A stretch of DNA of 64,000 nt from Gammaproteobacteria bacterium (GTDB taxonomy: Bacteria > Pseudomonadota > Gammaproteobacteria > Eutrophobiales > Eutrophobiaceae), in the NCBI GenBank assembly GCA_012103475.1, contig WLWS01000006.1:136518-200517 (forward strand), read 5' to 3'. Under the pieces are notes generated by a model. The model ran no database searches. It was given only the letters and a program-made list of their open reading frames with translations, and had not been told where the DNA came from. Positions 6,099 to 42,815 of the stretch are shown here, in pieces. Within the stretch, counting starts at the first letter, position 1. Every line of letters begins with the position of its first letter. Both the position numbers and the translations under genes were made by a program.

Positions 6099-6100
6099 CG

Positions 6101-6508
6101 ATGACCTCAGATAAGACAACTATTGTTAAAGCCTTTCTTGCAGCGGCAGTTGAGGCCGACTGGGAAAAATTGCAACAGTATCGCCACCCTGATTTTCAGG
6201 TAACAGAGTCCGAAGCTTTGCCCTATGCAGGAGTTTATAAAGGGGTCGACGGTTTCAGGAAACTGGTAAAGTTGATTTTTATTGAGTTGTTCGATGACTT
6301 TAAGGTGGAGCCTGAATGTTTTGCTGAAGGTGATAATCATGTGCTGTTGCTCGCGAATATCAGTGGTGTAGGCAAAAATACCGGCATCGGTTTTTCGTCG
6401 CAGGTTGCAGAAATTTATCATTTAGACAATCAGCTGATAAAAGAGATTCAGCCTTTTTACTGGGATACACAGCTTATTACCCGTGCGTTCTGTGGAGGAG
6501 GCTATTGA
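6101..6508 (+). CDS. NTF2-like / ketosteroid-isomerase-like protein
   Basis: 135 aa SnoaL-like pattern; starts 2 nt after the upstream stop. Confidence 0.55.
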   Translation: MTSDKTTIVKAFLAAAVEADWEKLQQYRHPDFQVTESEALPYAGVYKGVDGFRKLVKLIFIELFDDFKVEPECFAEGDNHVLLLANISGVGKNTGIGFSSQVAEIYHLDNQLIKEIQPFYWDTQLITRAFCGGGY

Positions 6509-13406: not shown

Positions 13407-13426
13407 TGCTTTTTGAAGTGAAGTAA

Positions 13427-26607: not shown

Positions 26608-26663
26608 AATTGATTTAGTTCATAACTTTTCACTGGCACATATTGAATGAGAAACGAAAGATT

Positions 26664-28505: not shown

Positions 28506-28639
28506 CAGTCTCAGTTATCAATTTTTCATTTTTTAGTGTTCGAATGTATTTGGCCCATATATCACTTTCTTCAAAATCGTTGTTTATCGTATCGAAGGTC
28601 CTGTCTGGGTGTTGATTTATTTTAGATTAATGTATTAAG

Positions 28640-28651
28640 ATATGCGCATAT
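28640..28651. promoter_or_regulatory. perfect 12-bp palindrome ATATGCGCATAT, candidate ArsR-family operator
   Basis: Read directly from the sequence. Lies 21-32 nt upstream of the arsR-family ATG (28672) and just upstream of the GAGGA ribosome-binding site. Confidence 0.5.
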
Positions 28652-28671
28652 TAGAAACTGAGGATAAGTGA

Positions 28672-29028
28672 ATGCCCGCTCGCGAAGTGGTCGCCCGGGA
28701 ACTCGCGGAAACTTTCCGAGTTTTGGGTCACGAATTAAGAATACGTATCGTCGAGGAACTGGCACATGGCCACAAAGGCGAACTCGATGTGCATACTCTG
28801 GTGGATATTCTGGATGTGCCTCAGCCTACTGTTTCCCAGCATCTGGGCGTACTTCGGAATGCGAAACTGGTTAAACAACGTCGAGTGGGCCGGCATGTAC
28901 ATTACTCGCTGACGAATCGACAGCTGGCCGGATGGCTTCTCAAGGCTTTGCTTTTTCTGGATGTGCGCTCTCATGATGCTGAAGAGCTGAGTCGAGCCGT
29001 CGAAGATGTTCGACGGGTATGGGGTTAA
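28672..29028 (+). CDS. ArsR/SmtB-family winged-helix transcriptional regulator (cysteine-free)
   Basis: FRVLGHELRIRIVEEL ... VPQPTVSQHLGVLRNAKLV...GRHVHYSL are canonical ArsR HTH motifs. There are no Cys residues, and ELDVHTL sits where ELCVCDL would be. Confidence 0.85.
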   Translation: MPAREVVARELAETFRVLGHELRIRIVEELAHGHKGELDVHTLVDILDVPQPTVSQHLGVLRNAKLVKQRRVGRHVHYSLTNRQLAGWLLKALLFLDVRSHDAEELSRAVEDVRRVWG

Positions 29029-29053
29029 TTACATATTTAATGGGAAGAGAGAT

Positions 29054-30685
29054 ATGACTACGACAACTACCGATATACCTCAGGGAACTATAGATGGACT
29101 CAAACGTCACTGGAAAGACGATATGTTATCGGGCTTTCTGGTATTTCTTATTGCCTTGCCTTTATGTCTTGCCATCTCGCTTGCCTGTGGCTACCCGGCA
29201 ATAGCCGGTGTATTCACGGCGATTATTGGCGGTATTTTGTCCGCTTTTATAAGCAATTCCGAATTGACGATCAAAGGCCCTGCTGCCGGACTTATTGTGG
29301 TCGCTTTGGGCTGTGTCACCGAATTCGGTTTCACAGGAGGACAGGATCTCGCTGCAGATATCCAGGCCTATCGATTGGCTCTGGGAGTCGGAGTAGTCGC
29401 CGGTATTATTCAAATTCTTTTTGGCGTTTTCCGCTCCGGCATACTCGGCGAATTTTTTCCTACATCAGCCGTTCACGGCTTGCTGGCTTCTATCGGTATT
29501 CTGGTCATATCCACGCAAGTACCAATTGTGCTTGGCGTCGCCGCCGGTGGGACACCGCTCGAGCGACTGGCCGCCATTCCAAGCTATTTCATTGAAATGA
29601 ATCCAGTTATAGCCCTGATAGGCGGAATAAGTCTCATCATCATGTTCGGGTTTCCGCTCATTAAGAATCCGCGGCTCAAAATCATACCGGCGCCCATGCT
29701 TGTCCTTTTAGTAGCTGTTCCTCTCGGCATGTATTTCGATATAGGCACTGAACAAATAGTGATGTTCGCAGGACAAGAGGCTTCACTCGGGCCACGCTAC
29801 CTTGTCGATGTGCCTAATAACATGTTCACTGCACTGACCTTTCCGGACTTTTCAGGAGTAATGACAAAAACCGGCATAACCTACATCATCATGTTCTCAT
29901 TAATCGGCAGTGTTGAATCCCTGTTAAGTGCAAAAGCCGTTGATCAGATTGACCCATGGCGTCGTAAAACTAATATGGACAAGGATCTTCTCGCCGTTGG
30001 CATTGGTAACACAGCTGCAGCCTTTGTTGGTGGTCTACCGATGATTTCCGAGATCGTACGAAGTAAAGCCAATATAGATAATGGTGCGCGTACCCGCTTC
30101 GCTAACATGTTTCATGGCTTCTTCCTGCTAGCCTTTGTCGCTCTGGTACCTGCATTAATCGATCGTATTCCCCTCGCAGCGCTTGCAGCGATGCTGGTAT
30201 TTACAGGTTTTCGACTCGCGTCCCCACAAGAGTTCGTCCATATGTACAAAATTGGTCGAGAGCAATTTATCATTTTTGTCTCGACCATCATTGGTGTGCT
30301 TGCAACTGATCTGCTTGTTGGCATCTGTATTGGAATACTGGTGAAAGCAATCATCCACGTCATCAATGGCGCGCCAATCGTTTCCTTGTTCAAGCCCAGT
30401 ATCACAGTTGAAAACGAGAGCGATGAGACGGCGACAATTAAGGTAGATAAATCCGCCCTGTTCAGCACCTGGATCGCGCTGAAAAACCGAATCGGCGGAC
30501 AAAGCGCGAAGCAAGTCATTGTCGACTTGTCTGACACCAAATTCGTGGACCACACTGTGATGGCGAATCTGGAAGCACTCGCCAAAGAATTCAGTGAGAG
30601 TGATCGCGAACTCTTAATCACAGGAATAGAGGAACATAAATCCTTATCTGAACATCCCCTGGCAGCACGAAAGAAATCGTACTGA
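29054..30685 (+). CDS. SulP-family anion transporter with C-terminal STAS domain (candidate bicarbonate transporter)
   Basis: DMLSGFLVFLIALPLCLAISLACGYPAIAGVFTAIIGG and TIKGPAAGLIVV are typical of SulP. The C-terminal section (QVIVDLSDTKFVDHTVMANLEAL) looks like STAS. Start set to ATG 29054. Confidence 0.85.
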   Translation: MTTTTTDIPQGTIDGLKRHWKDDMLSGFLVFLIALPLCLAISLACGYPAIAGVFTAIIGGILSAFISNSELTIKGPAAGLIVVALGCVTEFGFTGGQDLAADIQAYRLALGVGVVAGIIQILFGVFRSGILGEFFPTSAVHGLLASIGILVISTQVPIVLGVAAGGTPLERLAAIPSYFIEMNPVIALIGGISLIIMFGFPLIKNPRLKIIPAPMLVLLVAVPLGMYFDIGTEQIVMFAGQEASLGPRYLVDVPNNMFTALTFPDFSGVMTKTGITYIIMFSLIGSVESLLSAKAVDQIDPWRRKTNMDKDLLAVGIGNTAAAFVGGLPMISEIVRSKANIDNGARTRFANMFHGFFLLAFVALVPALIDRIPLAALAAMLVFTGFRLASPQEFVHMYKIGREQFIIFVSTIIGVLATDLLVGICIGILVKAIIHVINGAPIVSLFKPSITVENESDETATIKVDKSALFSTWIALKNRIGGQSAKQVIVDLSDTKFVDHTVMANLEALAKEFSESDRELLITGIEEHKSLSEHPLAARKKSY

Positions 30686-33552
30686 TGAGCGCAAGCACTC
30701 CATTCTACCGTCTCATCGAGGAGGCGGCCGAACCAGTTTCTCAGTTCTGGCCAATGAAAGGATTTGTCTCGCACAATCCAATACAGGGCCTCGAACATCT
30801 TCCTTTTGACGAAGCATTCCGGCAGGCAAAAGATCTGTTTGGCGCGGAAGGATATTTACCAGCAGAGGAATATCGGGCTTTGTTGCAGACTGGTCGTATA
30901 ACACAGGAAAGCGTGAATAGCGCGATGGCTCGTGTTGGTCCAGAGAATGATGAGTCTGTATCTTTATCATCGCGAACAATTTCAGCAAAGGAAGTACTGA
31001 GGCTTCATTTGCTGCATGGGATTGATGTGCTTGAGCCGGCACTACTTGAATGGCAGCTAACAAGTGGAGGTGCTTTAGAGAAGCCCTTTGCAGCTGCTAC
31101 TACAGAGTTGGACTTAGCCGGATTGTGGCAACAAGTGTTATCTATATTGAAGCTTGCCGACGGCTCTACGAACAAAAAGGGACCGATATCTGCGCAGGCA
31201 GATGAGGCCAGGCTCGATTTACCATTTCGCCGAACCCTCAGTGACTGGCTTGACGAGCTTACCAACTCCTCACTAGTCGCAAGCATCGATCAGCATCTGA
31301 TCAAATGGACATCCTCCTTTGTCGATGAAGGCATGGCCAGCTGGTCTATGCCAGGCAGGCCTTCCGGTTTTTATCTTGCGTGGCGTGAACTCGCCCAGCA
31401 CGATGCGAGTGCCCGACTCCTGGGAATAAAGAACTTTTCATCAAAGGTGGCCGCTTTGCCAGAGGATCCGGAAGCTGGCATCCAGCAATCGCTACAGGCA
31501 CTTCAGATTCCTGAAGCACGTTGGCCGGACTATTTAACCAGAGTGCTCGCCCAGTTGCCAGGCTGGACAGGATTGATTCGCTGGCGTGGGTTGAACCCGG
31601 ATGATCCGATTCAGAAAGCAGCGCCGATCGATGTTGTGCAATATCTTGCCGTTCGCATGTTTTATGAACGGGAGCTTGTTCAATTACAGGCCTCTCGGGA
31701 ATGGCGTATCGAAGGTAATTTACCAACGCTTACAAAATATCTGCAAGAACATGGCAGGGCGCCGGAAGCCACAGTTAGTGCCAACAAAGCGGCGGTATGC
31801 AGCGATGCCTGGCGATTGTTTAATCTCATGCAGCTTTTGAAATCTGAAGCAAGCTCTTTTACTGATATTAGATATGAGCAGGCAAAAGTTATGCTTGGCT
31901 GGCTTGATGAATTTCCTGTTGAGCAACATTTACCCGTTTGGCTTGAGGCATATGAAGATTCCTATCGGAATGAATTGTTGTCAAAAATTCACGCACACAG
32001 GGGAAACGTAACCGAAGCTAAGGAGCGACCACTCGCCCAGGCGGCATTTTGTATTGATGTTCGCTCAGAGCCCTTCCGCCGTCATTTTGAAGCAACAGGG
32101 GCAATAGAAACAATTGGTTATGCGGGCTTTTTCGGTATCCCGATGAGTCACCGCGGGTACGACACAGAAGAGTCCTTTCCACTTTGCCCGGTATTGCTGT
32201 CACCCTCAAATGCACTCTATGAATTACCTCGGGAAGGTCAGCAACAGGCACTCTCAAAATACGCCTCGGGTACACGCTGGCTACAACTAGGGGAGCAACT
32301 ATTTCACGATATAAAGCACAGTCCGATTGCGTCGTTTTTATTGGTAGATGTGCTTGGACTGTTTTTTAGCGTTGCGCTAATTGGCAAAACGCTCTTTCGG
32401 CGTTCTTACCATATCCTGCTTAGTGCAATGAAAAAATGGTTTGTTCAATCTGTCGAGACTGAGATTCAGGCCGGTGAAGAGACAGGTGATAAACCACGAG
32501 TTAGCGGCGTACCGGTTGAGCTTACTCGAGGTTATAGTGTTGCGCAGCAGGCTGATTTCGTCGAAGGTGGACTGCGAGTTACCGGGCTGACGGAAAATCT
32601 TGGCCGATTTGTCGTGCTCTGTGGTCACGGCAGTACAACTGACAATAACCCGTATTCTGCCGCCCTCGACTGCGGTGCATGTGGTGGGCGTCACGGCGAT
32701 CCGAATGCACGTACTTTTGCTATAATGGCGAATAATCCTTTGGTTCGAGCGGAGATCAAGAGGCGTGGTCTTGATATCCCGGAAGACACCTGGTTCTTAC
32801 CAGCAAAGCACAATACCACTGCCGATACGATCGAATTTTACGATGTCGTAGATGTTCCCCAAAGTCATCGAGAAGATCTGGAGAAGCTTCGCCAGTTATT
32901 TATTGAAGGTGGTGAGCAGCAGGCTCTTGACCGTTGCAAACGCATTCCGGGAACTCCGAGTAACATGACCGCGAAACAGGCTTTCGCACATGTTGAGTCA
33001 AGGAGCTTTGACTGGGCGACATCCCGACCTGAATGGGGCCTTTCGGGTAACGCCGCCTTTATCATTGGAAGACGGATGATGACCAAGGGTCTTGATTTAG
33101 GAGGACGTTGTTTCTTACATTCTTACAACGCACTTTCTGATCCGGAAGGCGCCTTGCTGGAAAAAATAATGACGGCACCGCTTGTAGTGGGCGAGTGGAT
33201 CAATATGCAGTACTACACCTCTGCAACTGATCCCTGGAAATACGGCAGTGGCAGCAAAGTTATTCATAATGTTGTGGGAGGAGTGGGGGTTATGTATGGC
33301 GCGCAAAGCGATCTGGCTACAGGCTTACCGCTGCAGACTGTGAATGATGGCGCCAGCCATTTTCACGAGCCCGTACGTTTACTGACTTTGATTGAAGCTG
33401 ATCACGCGATTGTTGGCGAAATCATCGCCAGACATGACATACTGCAACAGTTTTTTCATAACGGCTGGTTGAATCTTGTCGTTATCGATCCGAATACATT
33501 TGAGTTCCGTCGGTACAACACAGACGCAAGCTGGGAGTTGCTTGAGCTATGA
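30685..33552 (+). CDS. dabA: DabA (DUF2309) - carbonic-anhydrase-like subunit of DIC-accumulating (DAB/Mps) complexes
   Basis: 955 aa. N-terminus FWPMKGFVSHNPIQGLEHLPFDEA. CIDVRSE motif (C456, D458). GHGS (H648) and LDCGACGG (C663), with the same H-to-C spacing of 15 as the published DabA Zn site. The ATG overlaps the sulP stop. Confidence 0.85.
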   Translation: MSASTPFYRLIEEAAEPVSQFWPMKGFVSHNPIQGLEHLPFDEAFRQAKDLFGAEGYLPAEEYRALLQTGRITQESVNSAMARVGPENDESVSLSSRTISAKEVLRLHLLHGIDVLEPALLEWQLTSGGALEKPFAAATTELDLAGLWQQVLSILKLADGSTNKKGPISAQADEARLDLPFRRTLSDWLDELTNSSLVASIDQHLIKWTSSFVDEGMASWSMPGRPSGFYLAWRELAQHDASARLLGIKNFSSKVAALPEDPEAGIQQSLQALQIPEARWPDYLTRVLAQLPGWTGLIRWRGLNPDDPIQKAAPIDVVQYLAVRMFYERELVQLQASREWRIEGNLPTLTKYLQEHGRAPEATVSANKAAVCSDAWRLFNLMQLLKSEASSFTDIRYEQAKVMLGWLDEFPVEQHLPVWLEAYEDSYRNELLSKIHAHRGNVTEAKERPLAQAAFCIDVRSEPFRRHFEATGAIETIGYAGFFGIPMSHRGYDTEESFPLCPVLLSPSNALYELPREGQQQALSKYASGTRWLQLGEQLFHDIKHSPIASFLLVDVLGLFFSVALIGKTLFRRSYHILLSAMKKWFVQSVETEIQAGEETGDKPRVSGVPVELTRGYSVAQQADFVEGGLRVTGLTENLGRFVVLCGHGSTTDNNPYSAALDCGACGGRHGDPNARTFAIMANNPLVRAEIKRRGLDIPEDTWFLPAKHNTTADTIEFYDVVDVPQSHREDLEKLRQLFIEGGEQQALDRCKRIPGTPSNMTAKQAFAHVESRSFDWATSRPEWGLSGNAAFIIGRRMMTKGLDLGGRCFLHSYNALSDPEGALLEKIMTAPLVVGEWINMQYYTSATDPWKYGSGSKVIHNVVGGVGVMYGAQSDLATGLPLQTVNDGASHFHEPVRLLTLIEADHAIVGEIIARHDILQQFFHNGWLNLVVIDPNTFEFRRYNTDASWELLEL

Positions 33553-34019
33553 AAGTTTTTATTGCAATCGCGCTCTTTGCATTGTGGCTGGTGTTGTCTG
33601 CATCCTTTAACCCGGCCCATGTAGTGCTGGGAGCAATTGTTGCTTTAATCGTTGCCTGGATAAACCCGATAGGCACTCCCTATACGCGACGCTTTTTATG
33701 GCTGCGAGCGCTGGGCTATGCGCCCTGGCTATTCGGGCGAGTTGTTAAAAGCGGCTTACACGTCAGTCGACTTATTCTTTATCCTGCTCTGCCAATCAAG
33801 CCCGAGCTTATACAACACAAAACAAAGCTTCGCAGCGAAGGAGAGCTTGTTGTACTAGGCAATTCAATCACCCTTACGCCTGGTACGATCACCGTCGAAG
33901 TAGCGCCTGGCGAACTTATCGTACATGCCATTGATGCATCAGCGCAGCAGGACCTTATCAGTGGAGTGCTTGATGAGAAGGTCAGTCGTTTGTTCTCAGC
34001 ATGGGAGGGAGATCAGTGA
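33549..34019 (+). CDS. mrpE: Mrp/Mnh antiporter subunit E-like (MbhA-like)
   Basis: NSITLTPGTITVEV signature. Two N-terminal TM helices. ATGA overlap with the dabA stop. Confidence 0.8.
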   Translation: MKVFIAIALFALWLVLSASFNPAHVVLGAIVALIVAWINPIGTPYTRRFLWLRALGYAPWLFGRVVKSGLHVSRLILYPALPIKPELIQHKTKLRSEGELVVLGNSITLTPGTITVEVAPGELIVHAIDASAQQDLISGVLDEKVSRLFSAWEGDQ

Positions 34020-34288
34020 GTTCATTTTTTGTTTTTGTGCTCGTTACCCTGACGATGCTGATGCTTGTTTATTTATATCGTGTTATTCGCGGACCCAGTG
34101 TCTTTGACCGTGTGCTTGGATTAAACGGTATATCCACCAAGGCAATTGTTTTACTTGTGTTGCTTGGCACGATGTTTGAACGCGTCGATATGTTCGTGGA
34201 TATTTCAACCGGATACGCACTATTGAATCTCGTTGGTGCACTGGCCATCGCGAAATTCCTTGAAGAAAGGGGGACCTCAGAGAAATGA
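34016..34288 (+). CDS. mrpF: Mrp/Mnh subunit F-like (MbhB-like)
   Basis: YRVIRGPSVFDRVLGLN signature. GTG 34016 gives a GTGA overlap with the mrpE stop; an alternative ATG lies at 34001. Confidence 0.75.
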   Translation: MSSFFVFVLVTLTMLMLVYLYRVIRGPSVFDRVLGLNGISTKAIVLLVLLGTMFERVDMFVDISTGYALLNLVGALAIAKFLEERGTSEK

Positions 34289-34584
34289 CCGCCTTAGCAG
34301 TTTTTCTAATAGTCGTAGGACTATTTTTTCTTGTTGTTGGCTCGATTGGTATGATGCGCTTGCCGGATGTCTTTTCCCGTGCACACGCACTTTCGCTTAC
34401 TGATTCACTCGGGGCCGTTTTCGTTCTGGCAGGGCTTGCGGTCTATGAAGGTTTTACCCTTAATTTTCTTCGGATCATTGTTGTGCTACTGCTCGTCTAC
34501 CTGATGAATCCTGCAATTTCACACGCGACATTAAGGGCAGCATACCGTTCAGGTCTTCGGCCTTCTGCAAAGGAAGAAAAATGA
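34285..34584 (+). CDS. mrpG: Mrp/Mnh subunit G-like (MbhC-like)
   Basis: VGSIGMMRLPDVFSRAHALSLTDSLG signature; ATGA overlap with the upstream gene. Confidence 0.8.
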   Translation: MTALAVFLIVVGLFFLVVGSIGMMRLPDVFSRAHALSLTDSLGAVFVLAGLAVYEGFTLNFLRIIVVLLLVYLMNPAISHATLRAAYRSGLRPSAKEEK

Positions 34585-35105
34585 CAATTGAAATTCCACT
34601 TCTTATTTTACTGGTGATGACAGCTGCTGGTGCCATGCTGGTGAAGGATCTTATTTCTTCAGTGTTCATTCTTGGTTCCTATAGCTTCGCACTGTCACTT
34701 GTCTGGGCACTCCTGGGCGCAGTTGATGTGGCTTTTGTAGAGGCCGTTGTCGGGGCAGGACTGGCAACGGTCTTCTTCCTGTTAACCTTATTCCGGACCA
34801 CAGAAAAAGATGACGTTATACGTCGTCCGCCGGTACCCTGGGCGGCAATAATTGGCCTGCCCCTGTTAGGTTTACTGCTTCTTTATGGAGCGGGTGATCT
34901 ACCCGCATTTGGCGATGTAAGTTCTCCGGCAAGCACGCATATTTCTCCCTACTACCTCGAGAACAGTGTTGCGCAAACCCGAACTCCGAACGTGGTGACC
35001 GCTGTGCTCATGGATTATCGTTCTTTCGATACCTTTATCGAGACCATCGTGATATTTACCGCAGGGATTGCCTGCGCACTCATTCTCAGGAAGGGCGGCG
35101 AATGA
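34581..35105 (+). CDS. MbhD/MbhE-like protein (DUF4040 + MnhB N-terminal-type segment; equivalent to the MrpA C-terminal domain)
   Basis: AVDVAFVEAVVGAGLATVFFLL (DUF4040-like) and NVVTAVLMDYRSFDTFIETIVIF (MnhB-type) motifs. Confidence 0.7.
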   Translation: MTIEIPLLILLVMTAAGAMLVKDLISSVFILGSYSFALSLVWALLGAVDVAFVEAVVGAGLATVFFLLTLFRTTEKDDVIRRPPVPWAAIIGLPLLGLLLLYGAGDLPAFGDVSSPASTHISPYYLENSVAQTRTPNVVTAVLMDYRSFDTFIETIVIFTAGIACALILRKGGE

Positions 35106-35563
35106 TTCAGCCACATGACAGCGCTATCGTGCGTTCACTTGGTCATGTTGTCATTCCGATAGCTCAACTCTTCGGGGCTTATGTACTGGTGTTTGGTCAA
35201 CACGGACCGGGGGGCGGCTTTGTCGGTGGTGTGGTCATTGCGGCCAGCATGATCATGGCCATTTTAATCTTCGGCGTTGACTCTGCTGATAGTACGCTCG
35301 CCCGAAAAATACTGCATGGAGACGGGCTGGGTCTGCTGCTCTTTGGCGGTGTTGGCGGACTCTGCCTGATCGGAGGAGGTCAATTTCTGAATTACAGCTT
35401 CTTGCAAATCCCTGGTCTCGACGAAGCGTCTCAACATTATGCCGGAATACTATTGACCCAGATTGGGGTCGCCATGGATGTCGCAGTTACCGGCGTGTCA
35501 ATTGCCGTCAGTCTGTCATTTGAAGAAGATGAAATTTCTCAAGACGAGGTGAAAGATGCTTGA
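35102..35563 (+). CDS. mrpB: Mrp/Mnh subunit B-like (MbhF-like)
   Basis: GQHGPGGGFVGGVVIAAS signature of the MnhB domain. Confidence 0.75.
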   Translation: MIQPHDSAIVRSLGHVVIPIAQLFGAYVLVFGQHGPGGGFVGGVVIAASMIMAILIFGVDSADSTLARKILHGDGLGLLLFGGVGGLCLIGGGQFLNYSFLQIPGLDEASQHYAGILLTQIGVAMDVAVTGVSIAVSLSFEEDEISQDEVKDA

Positions 35564-35933
35564 GCTATTGCAAACACTGATACAACGACCGAACTTTGTT
35601 GTTTTCGTCATCTTGTTTCTTTGGGGCATCTATATCATGGCGGCCCATCCAAACTTCGTTAAAAAACTCATCGGTCTGTATATTGTGCAGATCAGCGCGA
35701 TTTTTTTTCTTGTCGCCTTCAGTGCCAAACAAGGTGCGACGGTACCGGTCATAATGGAAGGGGCGGCAGCGGTGGAACCACTTATCTATGCAAATCCGCT
35801 TCCACATGTGCTGACTGTAACGGCTATTGTGGTCCAGGTTGCAACTCTTGGCGTCTCGCTGGCACTCGTGGCGGGGATTTATCGGAAGTTTGGCACTCTC
35901 GATGAAGATAAAGTGATGGAACAGCTAAAATGA
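35556..35933 (+). CDS. mrpC: Mrp/Mnh subunit C-like (NuoK-like, MbhG-like)
   Basis: 125 aa with three TM helices and a NuoK/MnhC-like pattern; position between mrpB and mrpD. Confidence 0.7.
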   Translation: MLELLQTLIQRPNFVVFVILFLWGIYIMAAHPNFVKKLIGLYIVQISAIFFLVAFSAKQGATVPVIMEGAAAVEPLIYANPLPHVLTVTAIVVQVATLGVSLALVAGIYRKFGTLDEDKVMEQLK

Positions 35934-37396
35934 ACTCTCATCTGCCCATCCTGATTTTTCTCGTGCCCTTTTTTGTGGGTGTATCGATGCCTATTCTCAC
36001 GGCAAAGCGACCTTCGCTATGCCCGGATATCACTTTGGCTGCGGTTATTGTTATGTTTTTGCTGGCAATAGCCAATCTTTATATGGTTCAGACAGAAGGG
36101 CCAATCGAGTATGCACTCGGTGGCTGGACTGCACCGATTGGTATCGCGTGGCTTAATGATTCGATTGCAGCAATTGTGGTTTTGACAGTCACTGTGGTGG
36201 CATTACTGACGCTGATCTATGGCCGGGTTATTGTTAGCGCCGATCTGGCAAAAAGTGTTCCTTACTATACGCTTATCCTTATCATGATTTCAGGCCTGGT
36301 TGGCCTCGTGTTTGCCGCAGACCTGTTTAATGTCTTTGTGTTTCTGGAAGTTGCCGCCTTATCTGGTTATGCACTGGTTGGTGCCGGGGGTGGGAAAGCG
36401 CAGGTTTATGCTTTTCGCTATCTACTGCTGGGTTCTTTTGGCGCAACACTTTATCTGCTGGGCCTTGGGCATCTCTACGTAGTCACCGGTACGCTCAATA
36501 TGGCGGATCTGGCGCTACGACTTCCTGAGTTAATGACATCTACAGCAGTAGTCGGCGGTCTTATCTATATTTTTCTTGGTCTTTCGATCAAGATGGCATT
36601 AATACCACTGCACAGCTGGTTGCCAGATGCGTATACCAACGCGCCCTCCGCAGTGACACCATTACTGGCCTCCACCGTCACCAAGGTCGCATTGGTAGCA
36701 TGGGTTCGCATTGAGTATTCGCTTATTGCGCCAAATGTTGAAGTCAGTCATGTGCCTGTGCTGGTGCTGTTAGAGGAACTAGGCGTTATCGCAGCACTCA
36801 TAGGCGGTGCGCTCGCTCTAATCCAGACCGATCTCAAGCGTATGTTTGCTTATGGCGGGATCAGTCATATTGGTTTGATTCTGATCGGTGTGAGTCTCGG
36901 CAATGACACGGGATTCGTAGGCGGCATGTTTTACCTGATCAATGACGCTGTCATGCAAGCAGCACTTTTCATGATTGCCGGTGCTATTCTTTATTACCAC
37001 AAGGCCCGTACACTTGATGATATACGCGGTGTGGGTCTGCACACTTCACCCTGGCTTACAGGGGCCCTGATAGTGGTCGCAGTAGCAATGGTAGGGTTGC
37101 CACCTACTGGCGGTTTTTTCGGCAAATGGAATATCATACTTGGTGCCCTGGAGGCAGAACACTACTTTGCCGTATTTGCGGTGATCGCATCAACACTGCT
37201 GACCTTCGGTTATTTCCTTAAAGTATTCGCCGCCTGGTTCCACCAGACTGAATTTGTCGAAGCAAAATCAATCAAGATCTCAAGTGGCTTGAGAGTCAGT
37301 TTGGGTGCTATATCAATCTTAATGATTGCGCTTGGGCTTATGAGTGATTCAGTTGTGCAAATTTTACTTGAATCAGTAAACAATGGAGGCATTTGA
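35930..37396 (+). CDS. mrpD: antiporter-like subunit, MrpD/NuoN/MbhH-type (Proton_antipo_M)
   Basis: YALGGWTAPIGIAWLNDS, HSWLPDAY and MFAYGGISHIG are typical of MrpD-class subunits. Confidence 0.8.
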   Translation: MNSHLPILIFLVPFFVGVSMPILTAKRPSLCPDITLAAVIVMFLLAIANLYMVQTEGPIEYALGGWTAPIGIAWLNDSIAAIVVLTVTVVALLTLIYGRVIVSADLAKSVPYYTLILIMISGLVGLVFAADLFNVFVFLEVAALSGYALVGAGGGKAQVYAFRYLLLGSFGATLYLLGLGHLYVVTGTLNMADLALRLPELMTSTAVVGGLIYIFLGLSIKMALIPLHSWLPDAYTNAPSAVTPLLASTVTKVALVAWVRIEYSLIAPNVEVSHVPVLVLLEELGVIAALIGGALALIQTDLKRMFAYGGISHIGLILIGVSLGNDTGFVGGMFYLINDAVMQAALFMIAGAILYYHKARTLDDIRGVGLHTSPWLTGALIVVAVAMVGLPPTGGFFGKWNIILGALEAEHYFAVFAVIASTLLTFGYFLKVFAAWFHQTEFVEAKSIKISSGLRVSLGAISILMIALGLMSDSVVQILLESVNNGGI

Positions 37397-37403
37397 GAAG
37401 ACC

Positions 37404-39491
37404 ATGTCGATTTACACACTGATTCCTTTTCTACCGCTGGCAGCCTCGCTGATCCTGACACTATTTGGCGAGCAGCTGCAGGGCAAAGGGCAGCGACTTG
37501 TGATTCCGGCAATTGCACTTTCATTTCTGCTTTCCATTATTGCCTTCCTCGAAGTTATTGCAAACGGCCCGATTAATGTACAACTCTATCAATTTCTGAA
37601 TGTAGGCAAGCTGGTTGTTGATATGGGCTTTTTTCTCGATCAGCTCACCGTACTTTTGCTGCTGCTGGTAACCGGGGTCAGCACTGTCGTGCAGGTCTAT
37701 GCCTCCCGTTACATGGTAGGCGATCCACGGCACAGCCGTTTTTTTGCGCTGACTGCAATGTTTACAGCTGCAATGACACTACTGGTAATGAGCAGCAACT
37801 TAATGATGACCTTCATTTTTTGGGAACTCATGGGACTGTGCTCGTATCTGCTGATATCACATTACGCCGAGCGCCCCAGTGCCGCACGTGCCGCAACAAA
37901 GGTATTTCTGGTTAATTCCGTCGCCGATGCCGGACTCTTAGTCGGTGTCGTTCTGACTTTTCTGACTTTTGGCACGCTCGATATTCAGGAGATTCTGGTA
38001 ATAGCAAAATCAGGTGCTGATGTTTCCGATCTGCCCATAACACTGTTAACGCTATGTCTATTTTGCGGTGCAGTCGGCAAATCTGCGCAAATGCCTGCGC
38101 ACGTCTGGTTACCTTTTGCGATGGAAGCGCCGACACCAGTATCCGCGCTGATTCATGCCGCAACAATGGTGAATGCCGGGCCTTTTTTACTCGTGCGCCT
38201 GAGCCCGGTTATTGTGCTTTCGCCTACTGCGATGACGGTTATCACTATCGTTGGCGCCATGACGGCACTGTTTGCCGCAGTCGTGTCCTTAACGCAAACC
38301 GATATTAAGCGAACACTTGCCTATTCCACCATAAGTCAGCTCGGCTTTATGGTTATGTTATGTGGTGTGGGCGCATTTGTGGCCGCTATTTTTCACCTTA
38401 TCGCACATGGCTTCTTCAAGGCCTTCCTGTTTCTGTCCACCGGCAACGCGCTTACTGCCACCCATCGTCATTTAGAGCATGAAGAGGAAACGCCGGCACT
38501 TGCCAGGAACGGACTCTTTGTTGGCGCCCTAATCATGTCGATTGTACCGGTGCTGGTGTTTTTCTCAGGTTCCTATCGTCACCTGTGGCTTTCACAGAGT
38601 TCTTCCACCGCGGAAATAGCCTTATGGATTGTTGGCCTTGCTACGATCTTTTTTACTGCGATGTATCTCTTCAAAAGTGTGACGACAATCTTCCGCCGTG
38701 GTCCCACGGGAGCTAAAGACAGTGAGCCCCTTGTTTCTCCAGACCTGTTCTCTGCACGTCACGTAATTGGCGTTGCTGTCATAGCAGCAATCATGATTGC
38801 ACTGTTAATTACAGTATGGCGCTGGTTTGCGGGTTTCCTCTCGCCAGCAGTAGGTGGTGCGCAGAGTCAGCTTGCATCGGAATTTTCTGTCTGGATACTG
38901 TTGCCCTTGCTTGTCGCCGTGGCGGGCTGGATAGTCGCTTATGTCCGATTCAGACGTCCGCGCTTGCAGCAGACCTCGGTTTTAAAGAAACGACTTTATG
39001 TCTTCTTCCTGAATAAAGGGTATTTCGATGACATTTATGAGGTATTTCTGGTCCGCCCGACTTTAAAACTTGCTGACTGGACCTGGAGAAAGATTGATCA
39101 GGGTATTATCGATAAGGTCATAATTTCACTCGGTACTATAAGTACAGCGCTTGCCCATCGTCTCGGTTACCTCGATGCAGCTATTGATAAGGGAGTCATG
39201 TCGGTTGGTACTGGCAGTACTGCAATTGCCCATCGCCTCGGCTATCTCGATGCTATTGTTGATAATCGTGTTACTTCGGTTGGCTCGGTCAGCATCGGTT
39301 TAGCCCGTTGGCTGGGCAGATTCGTCGATACAGAGGGCATTTCTAAAACGGTTGATGGATTAGGACGGAGCGTGGATGCGTCCGGACACGCGGCTAGACG
39401 CTATGAACCACACACACTACAACACAACCTGTTGGTGGTAGTATTGTGGCTGGTTGCAGCTCTGGGTTTTTTCTACTGGATCGGGGGATAA
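37404..39491 (+). CDS. antiporter-like subunit, NuoL/NdhF/MrpA-N-type (DabB candidate) with expanded C-terminal lateral-helix region
   Basis: FIFWELMGLCSYLLI, VGKSAQMPAHVWLPFAMEAPTPVSALIHAATMV and LAYSTISQLGFM are NuoL/NdhF hallmarks. The C-terminus has four tandem 25-26-aa units and a final TM anchor. An alternative ATG at 37383 overlaps the upstream gene. Confidence 0.8.
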   Translation: MSIYTLIPFLPLAASLILTLFGEQLQGKGQRLVIPAIALSFLLSIIAFLEVIANGPINVQLYQFLNVGKLVVDMGFFLDQLTVLLLLLVTGVSTVVQVYASRYMVGDPRHSRFFALTAMFTAAMTLLVMSSNLMMTFIFWELMGLCSYLLISHYAERPSAARAATKVFLVNSVADAGLLVGVVLTFLTFGTLDIQEILVIAKSGADVSDLPITLLTLCLFCGAVGKSAQMPAHVWLPFAMEAPTPVSALIHAATMVNAGPFLLVRLSPVIVLSPTAMTVITIVGAMTALFAAVVSLTQTDIKRTLAYSTISQLGFMVMLCGVGAFVAAIFHLIAHGFFKAFLFLSTGNALTATHRHLEHEEETPALARNGLFVGALIMSIVPVLVFFSGSYRHLWLSQSSSTAEIALWIVGLATIFFTAMYLFKSVTTIFRRGPTGAKDSEPLVSPDLFSARHVIGVAVIAAIMIALLITVWRWFAGFLSPAVGGAQSQLASEFSVWILLPLLVAVAGWIVAYVRFRRPRLQQTSVLKKRLYVFFLNKGYFDDIYEVFLVRPTLKLADWTWRKIDQGIIDKVIISLGTISTALAHRLGYLDAAIDKGVMSVGTGSTAIAHRLGYLDAIVDNRVTSVGSVSIGLARWLGRFVDTEGISKTVDGLGRSVDASGHAARRYEPHTLQHNLLVVVLWLVAALGFFYWIGG
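39096..39404 (+). repeat. four tandem 75-78-nt (25-26-aa) repeat units inside the NuoL-like gene
   Basis: Units start at D572, D598, D623 and D649: DQGIIDKVIISLGTISTALAHRLGYL / DAAIDKGVMSVGTGSTAIAHRLGYL / DAIVDNRVTSVGSVSIGLARWLGRFV / DTEGISKTVDGLGRSVDASGHAARRY. Units 1 and 2 are also very similar at the DNA level (gcccatcgtctcggttacctcgatgc vs gcccatcgcctcggctatctcgatgc). Confidence 0.85.
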
Positions 39492-39499
39492 ACAACGTT

Positions 39500-40972
39500 A
39501 TGGATTCACTATTTACAGACCACCTGCTGAGCTTGATGATCGCCATGCCATTTATCGGCATGGTTATTCTCGCATTTTTAAGTGACCGAAAATGGGTACT
39601 CACGACGACACTTGTTATCACACTGATCAACACGGCGCTCGCTTTCTTTCTCTGGAGTCAATTTGACCTCACCGAAACCGGCATGCAATTCGTTGAACGC
39701 CATCAATGGATGCCGACCTTCGGCATAGAATATGCCGTCGGTGTAGACGGCATCAGTCTGCTACTGGTACTGCTGACCACCTTCCTGCCGCCTCTTTGTG
39801 TGCTTGGATGCTGGGATTCAATCACCACCCGCTTGAAAGCCTTCATGATGTTGATCCTGCTCGTCGAAGGCGCCATGCTGGTTGTGTTTACTGCCCTGGA
39901 TGCTTTTCTATTCTTCATGCTCTGGGAAGTCACCATGGTGCCCATGTATTTCATGATTGTGCTGTGGGGCGGGCCGAATCGCGTCGCAGCCGGTTTGAAG
40001 TATGTCCTGTACAGCCTTACGGGAAGTTTACTTCTGCTCGTCGGTATATTGGGGCTTTCACTGCAGGCGGGTACTTTCGACATCATACAACTGGCAGATT
40101 TCAGTTATTCGGAGAAATCGGAATTCTGGATATTCCTCGCCCTGTTTCTGGGCTTTGCGATCAAACTTCCGATGCTGCCTTTTCACACCTGGCTTCCGGA
40201 TGCTCACTCCGAAGCGCCGACCGCGGGTAGTGTGCTGTTGGCAGGGGTACTCCTGAAAATGGGTGGCTATGGACTCATTCGTTTCTGTCTGCCCATCTTT
40301 CCAGAAATGGCGCATAGTTTTGCGCCGGCTGTGCTGTGGTTATCAGTTGCCGGTATTTTGTACGGCGGTTATATGGCGCTGGCACAAGAAGATCTGAAGA
40401 GACTGGTTGCCTATTCTTCCGTCTCGCATATGGGTTTTGTCACTCTGGGAATTTTCTCCTTCAATAACGAAGGTATCGAAGGCGCCATTTTGCAAATGAT
40501 GACCCATGGCCTGACTACCGGTGCAATGTTCCTGATAGTTGGTCAGCTATATGACCGCACACACAGTCGCAACATAGCTGACTATGGTGGTCTTCAGCAA
40601 CGCATGCCCAGATTCGTGGCCATTCTCAGCCTGTTTGCGGTCGCGTCATTCGGTTTACCTACAACATCTAATTTTATCGGCGAGTTCCTTATTCTTGTGG
40701 GTGTCTCCTACGAAAACTTTATCTTCGTCGTGCTGGCGATGGGCGGCATTGTCCTGGGTGCGGCCTACATGCTGTGGATGTTGCAGCGTGTTGCCTTCGG
40801 TCAGGCACGCACCGAAGCTGCTAGACAATTAACAGATCTGAATTTTCGGGAAATGCTGACAATACTTCCACTGGCTGTTGCTGTGGTAGGTATTGGCGTC
40901 TATCCAGGGCCATTTCTTGAGTCTATGGATGCCAGTGTGACTTACGTGGTTGAACGAATGGCTCAGCATTGA
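39500..40972 (+). CDS. antiporter-like subunit, NuoM/NdhD-type
   Basis: FGIEYAVGVDGISLLLVLLTTFL and FHTWLPDAHSEAPTAGSVLLAGVLLKMGGYGLIRF are NuoM hallmarks. Start set to ATG 39500, 8 nt after the upstream stop. Confidence 0.85.
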   Translation: MDSLFTDHLLSLMIAMPFIGMVILAFLSDRKWVLTTTLVITLINTALAFFLWSQFDLTETGMQFVERHQWMPTFGIEYAVGVDGISLLLVLLTTFLPPLCVLGCWDSITTRLKAFMMLILLVEGAMLVVFTALDAFLFFMLWEVTMVPMYFMIVLWGGPNRVAAGLKYVLYSLTGSLLLLVGILGLSLQAGTFDIIQLADFSYSEKSEFWIFLALFLGFAIKLPMLPFHTWLPDAHSEAPTAGSVLLAGVLLKMGGYGLIRFCLPIFPEMAHSFAPAVLWLSVAGILYGGYMALAQEDLKRLVAYSSVSHMGFVTLGIFSFNNEGIEGAILQMMTHGLTTGAMFLIVGQLYDRTHSRNIADYGGLQQRMPRFVAILSLFAVASFGLPTTSNFIGEFLILVGVSYENFIFVVLAMGGIVLGAAYMLWMLQRVAFGQARTEAARQLTDLNFREMLTILPLAVAVVGIGVYPGPFLESMDASVTYVVERMAQH

Positions 40973-41015
40973 TGCCATTCATGTCAGGGACTCCTCTTTA
41001 TTGAGCGGTATTAAG

Positions 41016-41720
41016 ATGTCAAACAACATATATCGCATCCTCATTTCATATTTTCTTTGCTGGGTGTTAAGCGCGAACGCTGCAGCTCAGATTGACGAGG
41101 ATCAGACGGGCGCATGGTACATGTATTTATGGAATACGGCATTTGAAGACAGTCAGTTTGGATTGCAAGGGGATATCCAGCACAGAAACTGGGACCTTGG
41201 AGGAGACCTGGAGCAGTTGCTGATCAGAGGCGGCCTTAGCTGGTCTCCCGAGCAAAGTAATGTGAAATACACTTTGGGTTATGCCAACATCACATCCGGC
41301 ACCTTTGGTTCTTCGTCAAGCACCTCAAATGAGCATCGAGCCTATCAGAAGGCATCGATTCCTCAACGATGGGGTAAAAAACTTTATATTGGTCATCGTC
41401 TCAGGTTGGAACAACGTTGGGTGGAAGATCAGGACTATCGCAATCGATTCCGTTATTTCCTCAGTGCTAATTATCCCTTGAACAAATCTGACTTGAGTCA
41501 GGGAAGTGTTTATCTGTCATTTTACAATGAGCTATTCATCAACCTGGAAAAAGATATTGGCAATGGCAGGAAGGTCGATAATTTCGATAGAAACCGAACT
41601 TATCTGGCTCTTGGCTATAGCTGGACTAATCAAATCAGACTTCAATTCGGCTATATGCATCAAAAAACGAAATCAGTAGATAAGGGTCAATTGCAGTTCA
41701 ATTTATTTCATTCGTTCTAA
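41016..41720 (+). CDS. putative outer-membrane beta-barrel protein (DUF2490-like)
   Basis: Signal peptide MSNNIYRILISYFLCWVLSANAAAQ. Alternating amphipathic strands rich in Y/W/R. C-terminal ...FNLFHSF with terminal Phe. The DUF2490 assignment is from memory of the family pattern. Confidence 0.55.
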   Translation: MSNNIYRILISYFLCWVLSANAAAQIDEDQTGAWYMYLWNTAFEDSQFGLQGDIQHRNWDLGGDLEQLLIRGGLSWSPEQSNVKYTLGYANITSGTFGSSSSTSNEHRAYQKASIPQRWGKKLYIGHRLRLEQRWVEDQDYRNRFRYFLSANYPLNKSDLSQGSVYLSFYNELFINLEKDIGNGRKVDNFDRNRTYLALGYSWTNQIRLQFGYMHQKTKSVDKGQLQFNLFHSF

Positions 41721-41747
41721 TTTGATGACAAACGTCGTTTACGGCGC

Positions 41748-42815
41748 CTAGTAGTTTACTTTTGGACTACCAGCAGGATAGAAGACACCCATCAGCCGCA
41801 TACCCGACGAATCAGTGCACTCGAGAGAATGAGCCTGTCTTTCAGGCAGGAATATCAAGTCCCCGGGAACGACTTTGGTTTTCTTTGTTGTTGTCCACAT
41901 CATGCCTTCACCTGACATAATAAATATCGCTTCTTCATACAGATGATGATGAAAAGCGGCTCTTGACCTGGGTACTTCACCAATAAACTGTGTGACCTGT
42001 TCACATCCGAGATCACTGTTAACCAGCTCCAGTAAATGACGGTCTGCCATGGTGTCGCGCTTACTTTGATCATAGGTGGCGCTACGAGATTTTAATTCTG
42101 AATTAAAATTGTCTGGCATTTCATCAAGAAGCTGCAGTTCAACATTGCCCGGACACACCGTGATAATTGCTTTCAGTTCATCAGATCCGAGATTTGTGAG
42201 ACGAAAGGCCTCATCAGCGCAAACGTATATACCGGTTTCTACCGGGGTGACCATCGTTTCTCCAGATATATTGATGTTACCGTTGCCAGCAGCAATATAG
42301 ATGACCACTTCTGAATCAGGAAAAGAGAGAACGGGACTCTCTCCCTGGCTGATCTGAGCTACGTATTGAGCAAGATGCCTGGCACCGGTTTCGTCAGAAA
42401 TGTTTTTCTTGATTGTGACATGATGATTGCTGAACTGCAGACTGCCATTGTCACGAACTACATAACAGCCATTGTCCAGCAAGGCTGTTTGAAACTCTCC
42501 ATCTTCACTATTTGTATAGTCGACCTCAGCCGCATCGGCGAAATCTTCTGGAGCGGCTTCTGCGTAGGTGTCAGATAAATTATTGTGAGCACCATCGCAG
42601 AAGGGAGCAGACTGGGTTTGTTTACAGGCACATAAAAGTACATCTTCGTCGCGCTCTGGAACATAACGTAAAGGCTCAAACGAGGATCCCTGATGAGCGC
42701 CATCACAAAAAGGCTGTTTCTGGCTAAGCCCACAGCTACACCAGGCATAAGGACGGCCAGCTTTTAGGGAGACAAGACAGGGTTTGAGGGCGCTGACAAA
42801 TGCTTTTTCAGTCAT
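41748..42815 (-). CDS. double CDGSH iron-sulfur domain protein fused to cupin domain(s)
   Basis: Two motifs, CSCGLSQKQPFCDGAH and CACKQTQSAPFCDGAH, with a C-terminal cupin-like section (HHHLYEEAIFIMSGEG...PERQAHS). Confidence 0.75.
   Translation of the reverse strand: MTEKAFVSALKPCLVSLKAGRPYAWCSCGLSQKQPFCDGAHQGSSFEPLRYVPERDEDVLLCACKQTQSAPFCDGAHNNLSDTYAEAAPEDFADAAEVDYTNSEDGEFQTALLDNGCYVVRDNGSLQFSNHHVTIKKNISDETGARHLAQYVAQISQGESPVLSFPDSEVVIYIAAGNGNINISGETMVTPVETGIYVCADEAFRLTNLGSDELKAIITVCPGNVELQLLDEMPDNFNSELKSRSATYDQSKRDTMADRHLLELVNSDLGCEQVTQFIGEVPRSRAAFHHHLYEEAIFIMSGEGMMWTTTKKTKVVPGDLIFLPERQAHSLECTDSSGMRLMGVFYPAGSPKVNY

Follow-up and report, generated by a model that had tools for sequence, protein, structure and literature searches.

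Known DAB systems and the locus

DAB1 is a heterotrimer of DabA, DabB and DabC in which DabC, a half-NuoM-like and non-pumping protein, lies at NuoM's place beside NuoL (bioRxiv 10.64898/2026.05.01.722082), and DAB2 consists of DabA and DabB, with a short lateral helix on DabB2. In both solved DAB complexes DabA is bound to the NuoL-like subunit, and its membrane motif displaces the region of the lysine in transmembrane helix 12 (TM12). Here we analyzed a 64,000-nt stretch of a gammaproteobacterial assembly (GCA_012103475.1, contig WLWS01000006.1, positions 136,518 to 200,517), hereafter the window, in which dabA is followed by nine genes for membrane subunits of Mrp, Mbh and complex I type. 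The same block occurs in marine bacteria of five phyla, and it is therefore probably an undescribed, enlarged CO2-uptake pump. We consider it fairly likely that the ten genes from dabA to a NuoM-like gene encode one membrane complex, a vectorial CO2 hydratase of DAB type that is enlarged, ion-driven and equipped with several pumps. What we show below is the gene content, the synteny, the residue patterns and the phylogenetic placement.

Part of this gene neighborhood has been recorded before. The COGNAT study (Klimchuk et al. 2017, PMC5700660) described a 'clade C' in which some ybcC (dabA) genes lie upstream of a nuoL homologue, with SulP (COG0659) and NuoM (COG1008) as neighbors, and this is probably the same clade as the window system. 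Its authors gave the function of YbcC as unknown at the time and guessed at an exergonic enzyme; the text makes no mention of the Mrp E/F/G/B/C/D subunits and the supplements hold no Mrp COG identifiers (PMC5700660). A description of an Mrp-linked DabA was not found in the searchable literature. A 2026 survey (PMC13147460) reported DabA genes of Nitrospira moscoviensis and N. tepida without a companion bearing transmembrane helices. Because its rule requires an adjoining PF00361 gene, a dabA followed by mrpE would look partner-less, and our hypothesis is that these 'orphan' genes are of the dabA-mrpE type. The original prediction for this stretch had taken all characterized DAB/Mps systems to be two-gene units, a view that the three-subunit DAB1 contradicts (bioRxiv 10.64898/2026.05.01.722082).

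Operon organization

The open reading frame (ORF) list and a Pfam scan placed 13 ORFs between 28672 and 41720, all on the + strand and most with overlapping junctions. The ten that make up the conserved block are as follows, in window coordinates.

30685..33552, + strand: DabA, 955 aa, the beta-carbonic-anhydrase-like cytoplasmic subunit (Pfam PF10070, 874 bits, E 1e-262)
33549..34019, + strand: MrpE-like protein, 156 aa (Pfam MNHE, E 2e-33)
34001..34288, + strand: MrpF-like protein, 95 aa (Pfam MrpF_PhaF)
34285..34584, + strand: MrpG-like protein, 99 aa (Pfam PhaG_MnhG_YufB, E 5e-22; TIGR01300 above cutoff)
34581..35105, + strand: MbhD/E subunit (Pfam MbhD and MbhE; NCBIfam NF009159, 174 bits vs a cutoff of 141)
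35102..35563, + strand: MrpB-like protein, 153 aa (Pfam MnhB)
35556..35933, + strand: MrpC/NuoK-like protein, 125 aa (Pfam Oxidored_q2)
35930..37396, + strand: MrpD/NuoN-type antiporter-like subunit, 488 aa (Pfam Proton_antipo_M)
37383..39491, + strand: NuoL-like subunit, 702 aa (Pfam Proton_antipo_N and M; TIGR01974 NuoL, 481 bits, above cutoff)
39500..40972, + strand: NuoM-type antiporter-like subunit, 508 aa (Pfam Proton_antipo_M, 269 bits; the ORF opens at GTG 39446)

Four-nucleotide ATGA overlaps joined DabA to MrpE, MrpF to MrpG, MrpG to MbhDE, MbhDE to MrpB and MrpC to the MrpD-like gene. Other overlaps were of 1 nt (SulP/DabA), 8 nt (MrpB/MrpC) and 14 nt (MrpD-like/NuoL-like), and the NuoM-like protein likely starts at ATG 39500, 9 nt past the NuoL-like stop. 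Stop/start overlaps also occurred within the related blocks of loci L001, L084 and L086. No dabB-type gene abutted dabA; the closest PF00361 gene lay 2.4 kb downstream, past six small-subunit genes. We rejected the NuoL-like and NuoM-like genes as part of a nuo operon, as no further nuo genes were found nearby.

The original prediction had read the one-strand order from ArsR, SulP and DabA through MrpE to the NuoM-like gene and a DUF2490 gene, and had described overlapping or near-abutting junctions with an ATGA at dabA/mrpE and a 43-nt gap before the DUF2490 gene. Both descriptions held under the ORF list and Pfam, and the profile hidden Markov model searches assigned each ORF to its expected Pfam family. 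Its statement that no stand-alone dabB lies beside dabA, with the PF00361 candidates being three subunits within the arm, was likewise borne out.

Synteny and phylogeny

We surveyed related loci from two anchors. For the DabA-anchored survey, one genome per species was scanned with a DabA alignment and the hits were searched with the 13 window proteins by tblastn. All complete loci with a DabA at least about 42% identical to that of the window carried dabA-E-F-G-DE-B-C-D-L-M in that order, whereas loci with a DabA at or below 41% identity had the classical dabB-then-dabA order without Mrp genes. The block order was shared by 14 genome-derived loci (L001-L010, L013, L014, L016 and L017), three of which end early at a contig end. 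Carriers included Pseudohaliea rubra and metagenome-assembled genomes (MAGs) of Arenicellaceae, 'Rhodospirillaceae', Nitrospirales/Nitrospira, Nitrospina and Phycisphaerae. Three further loci with a full arm came from Nitrospira sp. Kam-Ns4a (a complete genome), the cyanobacterium Petrachloros mirabilis and a Nitrospirae MAG. dabA with the nine membrane genes was thus spread over five phyla, namely Gammaproteobacteria, Nitrospirota, Nitrospinota, Planctomycetota and one cyanobacterium. In every related locus examined mrpE stood directly 3' of dabA, a neighborhood that the original prediction had singled out for survey.

The second anchor, a metagenome scan with MbhD/E, recovered 80 loci, and all informative ones among them had the block order. 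dabA was present upstream in 25/25 of those that extend 4.6 kb or more in that direction, and MrpB plus three antiporter-like genes were present downstream in 20/20 of those that extend 6.5 kb or more on that side. Among about 60 informative loci, none contained one half of the block without the other. dabA and the mrp-like genes were co-conserved from either anchor, and the synteny from both anchors, across five phyla, supports the expanded DAB architecture that had been predicted from the window.

The Mrp-linked DabAs formed one clade in the neighbor-joining tree (100/100 bootstrap), with a weak sister relation to DAB1-like DabAs (42/100). Identities between Gammaproteobacteria and Nitrospirales were about 50% for DabA, 66-79% for MrpF, 72-75% for MbhDE and 64-67% for SulP. 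This cross-phylum pattern suggests transfer of the block from phylum to phylum as one unit. DabA homologues comprised 1845 representatives (50% clustering, E ≤1e-30), of which only the top ~15 were at least 44% identical to the window protein; the Mrp-linked clade thus makes up a minor share of all DabAs. Clustered at 90% identity, the DabA matches listed included more than 120 clusters that are ≥53% identical to the window DabA.

Several individual loci had additional content. L142 contained extra DabA-like matches (33% and 50% identity) 3' of a complete Mrp-type block, possibly a second DAB system. In the Petrachloros mirabilis locus (L085, 8549-9556 and 20851-21536), a beta-carbonic anhydrase and MpsC lay divergent and upstream of dabA, and another NuoL-like gene began past the NuoM-like gene, where it is cut by the contig end. 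In Bacillus benzoevorans (L061, 1360-12600), a canonical seven-gene mrp operon stood directly 5' of a classical dabB-dabA-mpsC; this neighborhood may be due to chance or may point to some looser functional tie of Mrp with DAB.

DabA

The window DabA was 100% identical to a protein of a gammaproteobacterial MAG. It matched DabA2 of H. neapolitanus (PDB 9rd0_A) at E 5e-115, with the CxDxR, GHGS and LDCGAC motifs kept. The zinc ligands of DabA2 are like those of beta-carbonic anhydrases (C351, D353, H524 and C539), and C456/D458/R460, H648 and C663 of the window protein aligned to the DabA2 zinc and active-site motifs and were invariant in 55 homologues. The window DabA therefore is a PF10070 subunit with beta-carbonic-anhydrase-like zinc ligands, which is one of the features that define a DAB. 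Hydropathy identified a single strongly hydrophobic segment at 548-566, inside a predicted helical region at 520-586. The AlphaFold2 model (predicted local distance difference test, pLDDT, 82) had helices at 520-544, 547-570 and 572-586, plausibly the counterpart of the motif ('finger' or 'elbow') that DabA1 and DabA2 insert into the membrane. A Foldseek search of the DabA model against the PDB returned no match at E ≤0.001, with 9rd0 not among the matches, and is uninformative on the fold.

Large antiporter-like subunits

The three antiporter-like subunits differed in their closest relatives. The 488-aa MrpD-like protein had its best PDB matches in MrpD (7qru_D, 206 bits) and MbhH (187 bits); NuoM/NuoN have their Mrp homologue in MrpD (PMC7419157). 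The 508-aa NuoM-like protein matched NuoM/ND4 at 356-417 bits, NdhD3 at 256 and MrpD at 114. The TM5 Glu, TM7 Lys and TM12 Lys were kept in 13/13 MrpD-like sequences, and the equivalents of E144, K234, K265, H322, H348 and E407 were invariant in 11/11 NuoM-like ones, such that all proton-relay residues tested are kept in both subunits.

The 702-aa NuoL-like protein is of particular importance as the candidate partner of DabA. By PDB bit scores its overall similarity was nearer to NuoL than to DabB (NuoL/ND5 258-307 bits, NdhF3 154, MrpA 150, DabB2 148). From the other direction, 53/53 classical DabBs from the fetched loci matched it better than they matched E. coli NuoL (mean 179 vs 142 bits), and a neighbor-joining tree of PF00361 proteins, with saturated distances capped and E. 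coli NuoL and one Bacillus MrpA as the L-type outgroups, separated the 702-aa clade plus the DabBs from both outgroups at 99/100. The NuoL-like gene thus appears to be a sister lineage of classical DabB, and for that reason its product is most likely the subunit on which DabA docks. It kept the equivalents of NuoL E144, D178, K229, H254, D303, H334, H338 and K342, and lacked the KMGGL loop and TM12 K399/D400, the same loss as in classical DabB.

Topology prediction gave the 702-aa protein about 15 transmembrane helices, about 160 non-membrane residues past the last core helix and a C-terminal transmembrane anchor. The only known role of such a lateral segment, from complex I and Mrp structures, is to clamp adjoining antiporter-like subunits (PMC9568556). 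A NuoL/NuoM/NuoN-type trio with a NuoL lateral helix, as in complex I, was found here. The lateral segment contained tandem repeats of 25 residues at about 582-656 (window 39126-39350), with a consensus of roughly SxGxxSxxxAxxLGxxDxxxDxxV. Close orthologues (655, 670 and 695-707 aa) had 1, 2 or 3 copies and the Nitrospira and cyanobacterial orthologues (724-732 aa, L084-L086) had 3-4; Tandem Repeats Finder detected no DNA-level tandem repeat beneath the protein repeats. The AlphaFold2 model of this subunit, from a 22-sequence alignment, had a mean pLDDT of 57, below 50 across the lateral segment, and was not used as evidence.

Small Mrp/Mbh-type subunits

All seven Mrp proteins had homologues in the operon, with the NuoL-like protein standing in for MrpA's N-terminal domain and MbhD/E for its C-terminal domain. 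We took the reference Na+-path residues from two Mrp structure papers and aligned the window proteins to the solved chains. The proposed path runs through MrpF D35/38, MrpC H37/H40 (or Mbh D37/H41), MrpB H34 and D121, and MrpA-C E706, D792 and E796 (PMC9568556, PMC7419157). The MrpF aspartate 35/38 was described there as 'invariably conserved', and a D35L variant was inactive (PMC9568556, PMC7419157).

The window MrpF had Asn at the Asp38/35 position, in the motif 'GLNG' (aligned to 7qru_F, 6z16_F, 6cfw_B, 6u8y_B and 7d3u_F), and this Asn was invariant in 15 + 3 clade members. In TM2 of MrpC, the position of Mbh Asp37 or the Mbs Glu was Gln and that of His40/41 was Ile (aligned to 6u8y_G, 6cfw_G, 7qru_C and 6z16_C). 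In MrpB, His34 was replaced by Gln and Asp121 by Gln, or by Met in some members (aligned to 7qru_B, 6z16_B and 6cfw_F), with the clade alignment showing the motifs 'GQxxPGGGF' and 'LTQIG'. These substitutions in MrpF, MrpC and MrpB were present in every clade member examined, Nitrospira and the cyanobacterium included; the canonical Bacillus Mrp of L061 had the MrpB His and Asp intact. MbhD/E aligned to MrpA residues of about 606-807 and kept the D...E and DxxxxDxxxE carboxylates, and its Glu is at the position found in Mbs subunit D (6u8y_D). Of the path proposed for Mrp (CPA3) antiporters, only the MrpA-C-type carboxylates were retained.

Overall, amide or apolar side chains have taken the place of ionizable ones on the proposed cation path. 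This clade-wide change at the Na+-path positions in MrpF, MrpC and MrpB makes it doubtful that the arm works as an ordinary antiporter, and on the same ground we rejected Na+-coupled Mrp function as the default. The arm looks to be of H+ type rather than Na+/H+ type.

Comparison with known systems

The window system shared with DAB1, DAB2 and the MpsAB(C) of Staphylococcus the CxDxR, H and C zinc-site motifs of DabA, and with DAB1 and DAB2 a partner of the NuoL/DabB lineage without the TM12 lysine. As in DAB1, there was a NuoM-related third subunit, and P-II, MpsC and SulP were shared accessory genes. Unlike in DAB1 and DAB2, dabA came first with no adjoining dabB, and the DabA belonged to the clade of its own described above. 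The NuoL-like protein also differed from their DabB in keeping the TM5 Glu (the E144 equivalent), a long lateral segment and a transmembrane anchor. In place of the DAB1 third subunit, the window had a full and apparently functional NuoM, plus an MrpD-type pump and six small Mrp/Mbh-type subunits.

DabC itself varied in size. It was 251 aa in the DAB1-like L023. In the Nitrospira-type DAB1-like loci L019-L022 the gene between dabB and dabA encoded 412-461 aa, and the two scanned, L021 and L022, gave a weak PF00361 match. L012 and L015 had an 849-860-aa DabB-like ORF, an apparent DabB-DabC fusion, whose C-terminal part in L015 was 26% identical to the NuoM-like protein. DabC sizes seem to form a series from half NuoM-like to nearly whole, which suggests a continuum from DAB1-like DabC to a full NuoM. 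DAB1, with its DabC at the NuoM position, is a precedent for the arrangement proposed here.

The resemblance to the cyanobacterial NDH-1MS/NDH-1MS' (NdhF3/NdhD3/CupA), a CO2-hydrating module on a complex-I-type arm, is by analogy only. Unlike NDH-1MS, the window cluster would not be redox-driven, its catalytic subunit is DabA and not CupA, and its L and M subunits were closer to respiratory NuoL (258-307 vs 154 bits) and NuoM (356-417 vs 256 bits) than to NdhF3 and NdhD3. Pfam families of NuoH, of a quinone or ferredoxin module and of CupA/B were absent from the operon, the window flanks and loci L001, L002 and L084-L086. As in Mrp, Mbh and Mbs, E, F, G, MbhD/E (MrpA-C), B, C and D stood in the order of the Mbh correspondence, and the MrpA-C carboxylates and MrpD TM5 Glu were kept. 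Unlike Mrp, the MrpA was split, the antiporter-like subunits were three rather than two (two of them of complex I type), the arm was joined to DabA throughout the sample and the Na+-path residues were replaced.

Accessory and flanking genes

The remaining features of the operon are given below.

28640..28651, no strand: candidate ArsR operator or promoter element, the perfect palindrome ATATGCGCATAT, 12 nt, 20 nt 5' of arsR
28672..29028, + strand: ArsR/SmtB-family regulator, 118 aa (Pfam HTH_5, E 4e-10)
29006..30685, + strand: SulP/SLC26 anion transporter carrying a STAS domain, 559 aa (Pfam Sulfate_transp, E 2e-53, and STAS; alternative start at ATG 29054)
41016..41720, + strand: DUF2490 protein, a putative outer-membrane porin (Pfam DUF2490, E 3e-43; the ORF opens at TTG 40950)

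Regulation. A pattern search found one copy of ATATGCGCATAT in the window vs 0.01 expected by chance, and AT-rich palindromes occupied the equivalent position 5' of the arsR orthologues of L003, L087, L016 and L090, making it a candidate ArsR operator or promoter element. ArsR orthologues of 79-98% identity preceded SulP-DabA in L003, L016, L087, L090, L095, L102 and L118. A promoter and terminator scan of 28300-42000 gave 13 against 16 and 21 against 15 in comparison with shuffled sequence, and is uninformative on internal signals. No tRNA genes and no Rfam families were found in the window scan.

SulP. The transporter had weak NCBIfam matches to BicA and DauA, below cutoff, and PDB matches to SLC26Dg (76 bits) and BicA (69 bits); we presume that it carries HCO3-. 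It was present upstream of dabA, at 64-85% identity, in most related loci. L007 (Nitrospina) and L013 (Nitrospira) had no SulP 5' of dabA, and Pseudohaliea had a different SulP (24% identity), indicating that SulP is frequent but not obligatory.

P-II, MpsC and DUF2490. P-II followed the last block gene (NuoM-like) in L084 and L086 and followed dabA in DAB1-like loci. At least nine Mrp-type loci had a divergent MpsC upstream of dabA; in Bacillus-type loci MpsC came after dabA. The window DUF2490 protein likely starts at ATG 41016, leaving the 43-nt gap. In L002, L016, L090, L095, L097, L102, L118 and L149 the cluster was flanked by a DUF2490 gene, whose side and strand varied. The family is a putative porin family (TC 1.B.81; PMC4827864), and DUF2490 is probably a loosely associated accessory gene whose porin role is putative. 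In L015 (Acidobacteria UBA2990), a SulP (4521-6143, 73% identity to that of the window) and a DUF2490 gene (12964-13815) flanked a DAB1-like locus; SulP and DUF2490 seem to travel with more than one DAB type.

Other window genes. A 228-aa antisense ORF across the SulP/DabA junction (30112-30798, - strand) is most likely spurious. Directly 5' of arsR were a short-chain dehydrogenase and a 620-aa DUF3604 protein (26643-28505, + strand, 758 bits), neither of which was kept beside the cluster at other loci. Convergent with the DUF2490 gene, 41748-42815 (- strand) encoded two CDGSH iron-sulfur domains with a C-terminal cupin, an unusual pairing. Farther on were a large TPR-repeat protein fused to a sulfotransferase domain (48840-50816, + strand) and, after it, a 316-aa ORF without a Pfam match (50822-51772). 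The remaining window genes were heterotrophic in character, with functions in beta-oxidation and a Rieske dioxygenase, TonB-dependent receptors and a pyrroloquinoline quinone (PQQ) dehydrogenase.

Proposed mechanism

From homology, we infer how a single complex would assemble, along with its subunit order, docking site, coupling ion and direction of work. By comparison with solved Mrp, Mbh and complex I, the arm would be linear, in the order MrpE/G/F, MbhDE/MrpB/MrpC, MrpD-like, NuoM-like and NuoL-like, with the lateral segment of the NuoL-like subunit running back across its neighbors. DabA would be seated on the NuoL-like subunit from the cytoplasmic side and would insert its hydrophobic segment at the site of the lost TM12 lysine. 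Ion flow, most likely of H+, through up to three intact antiporter-like channels would cause a conformational or electrostatic change that drives one-way CO2 hydration at the DabA zinc site, and CO2 diffusing into the cell would be trapped as HCO3-. With several pumps per catalytic site, the ion-to-CO2 coupling ratio would exceed that of DAB1 and DAB2, which have one pump each. A structural end-piece or an extra proton path, and not a Na+ exporter, is the probable role of the small Mrp-type subunits. The system would be completed by accessory genes, SulP (as the presumed HCO3- carrier) and ArsR here and P-II, MpsC and DUF2490 elsewhere; P-II and MpsC bracket the whole block, which we count as favoring one complex.

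Alternative explanations

The operon could instead encode two complexes, a DAB1-like trimer (DabA with the NuoL-like protein as DabB and the NuoM-like protein as DabC) and an Mbh-style mini-Mrp (E, F, G, MbhDE, B, C and the MrpD-like subunit) handling the H+/Na+ load. DAB1 does combine A and B with a NuoM-like C, the NuoL-like protein is sister to DabB, one antiporter-like subunit is enough for the Mbh membrane module to work, the order E-F-G-D/E-B-C-D is the Mbh subunit correspondence, MbhA-H (PMC7419157), and co-expression alone would account for the conserved synteny. Nevertheless, we judge this division unlikely. An ion-handling Mrp sits poorly with Na+-path positions in MrpF, MrpC and MrpB that are amide or apolar clade-wide; a lateral segment of about 160 residues plus anchor far exceeds the DabB2 helix and what a single neighbor would need; the NuoM-like subunit is a full pump and not a degenerate DabC; and no half-block occurred among the roughly 60 informative loci. 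The original prediction had offered a simpler form of this alternative, a DabA/DabB pair beside an ordinary Mrp. Its equation of DabB with the NuoL-like gene agrees with the 99/100 sister grouping, but the ordinary Mrp beside the pair is disfavored, and the alternative is weakened by the Na+-path substitutions, the NuoL-like lateral segment and anchor, and the canonical NuoM-type subunit.

A single complex might also serve pH and ion homeostasis in alkaline, saline habitats, with DabA supplying or consuming protons, the arm moving H+ and SulP exporting bicarbonate. The host looks heterotrophic by its beta-oxidation, Rieske dioxygenase and TonB-dependent receptor genes, and NhaB-type genes adjoin some loci. 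The cluster is also present in Pseudohaliea, which we take to be a heterotroph. Mrp systems classically serve alkaline pH and salt tolerance (PMC5703873), and the DAB authors raised the possibility that carbonic anhydrases and DABs regulate pH in heterotrophs (bioRxiv 10.1101/476713). Yet the chemolithoautotrophic nitrite oxidizers and a cyanobacterium also keep the cluster, its P-II and MpsC are common to classical DAB loci and its SulP to some, and the carboxylases of heterotrophs also require HCO3-, whose supply is the accepted role of MpsAB/DAB there (bioRxiv 10.1101/476713); we see little chance that homeostasis is the function. It is similarly improbable that, within one complex, DabA docks at the MrpE/G/F end in place of a peripheral module, leaving the three antiporter-like subunits as purely remote pumps. 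This arrangement draws on the translational coupling of dabA to mrpE in every locus examined, the cytoplasmic domain of MrpE (PMC9568556) and the concentration of residue changes in the small subunits. It conflicts with the two solved DAB complexes, in which DabA binds the NuoL-like subunit, and with the NuoL-like protein here, a sister of DabB that shares its loss of the TM12 lysine, in the region displaced by the DabA membrane motif. CupA in NDH-1MS likewise binds the NuoL-type subunit.

Several observations weigh against an enlarged DAB complex docked through its NuoL-like subunit. dabA adjoins mrpE and not the NuoL-like gene, and for that reason the docking site we propose gains no backing from gene order. 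Orthologues carry anywhere from 1 to 4 copies of the 25-aa lateral repeat, which is odd for a clamp of fixed span, and the AlphaFold2 model of the NuoL-like subunit is unreliable (pLDDT 57). The trees are neighbor-joining only, with just two L-type outgroups. One proton at a typical membrane potential is sufficient for a large HCO3- disequilibrium, which leaves the need for three pump modules unexplained. In a Nitrospirales MAG (OZ244060.1; L022, 9953-12973), a DabA of the clade (45-65% identity) lay in at least two ORFs with no arm behind it; a DegP-like protease followed the split DabA and a complete DAB1-like dabB-dabC-dabA adjoined it on the other strand, and either the split gene is an orphan in decay or it results from frameshift errors in long reads. 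Finally, the MbhDE anchor retrieved only relatives of at least 67% identity, and more distant DabA-less arms would be outside its reach.

Implications

A broader reading, which we put forward tentatively and hold to be somewhat less than an even bet, is that a redox-free, complex-I-like arm of three proton pumps with a de-charged Mrp end-piece drives a carbonic-anhydrase-like enzyme, that DAB1 and DAB2 are its reduced descendants with DabC as a NuoM remnant, and that it provides widespread high-gear CO2 capture in marine nitrite oxidizers and heterotrophs; it may also explain the Nitrospira 'orphan' DabA. Current pipelines label the genes 'NADH-quinone oxidoreductase subunit L' and 'DUF2309', and surveys demanding a PF00361 gene beside dabA (PMC13147460) would miss such systems or score them as partner-less.

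If the ten genes do encode one complex, it would couple CO2 hydration to membrane energy in a third way besides those of DAB and NDH-1MS, and its arm would be the first complex-I/Mrp-type multi-pump arm to serve an enzyme that is neither redox nor antiport. Because it has no cofactor chain, it could be a simple model for long-range coupling along such arms. The carriers are abundant marine groups, and since they include the nitrite oxidizers Nitrospina and Nitrospira, the system would be relevant to carbon fixation in the dark ocean and to the anaplerotic use of CO2 by heterotrophs.

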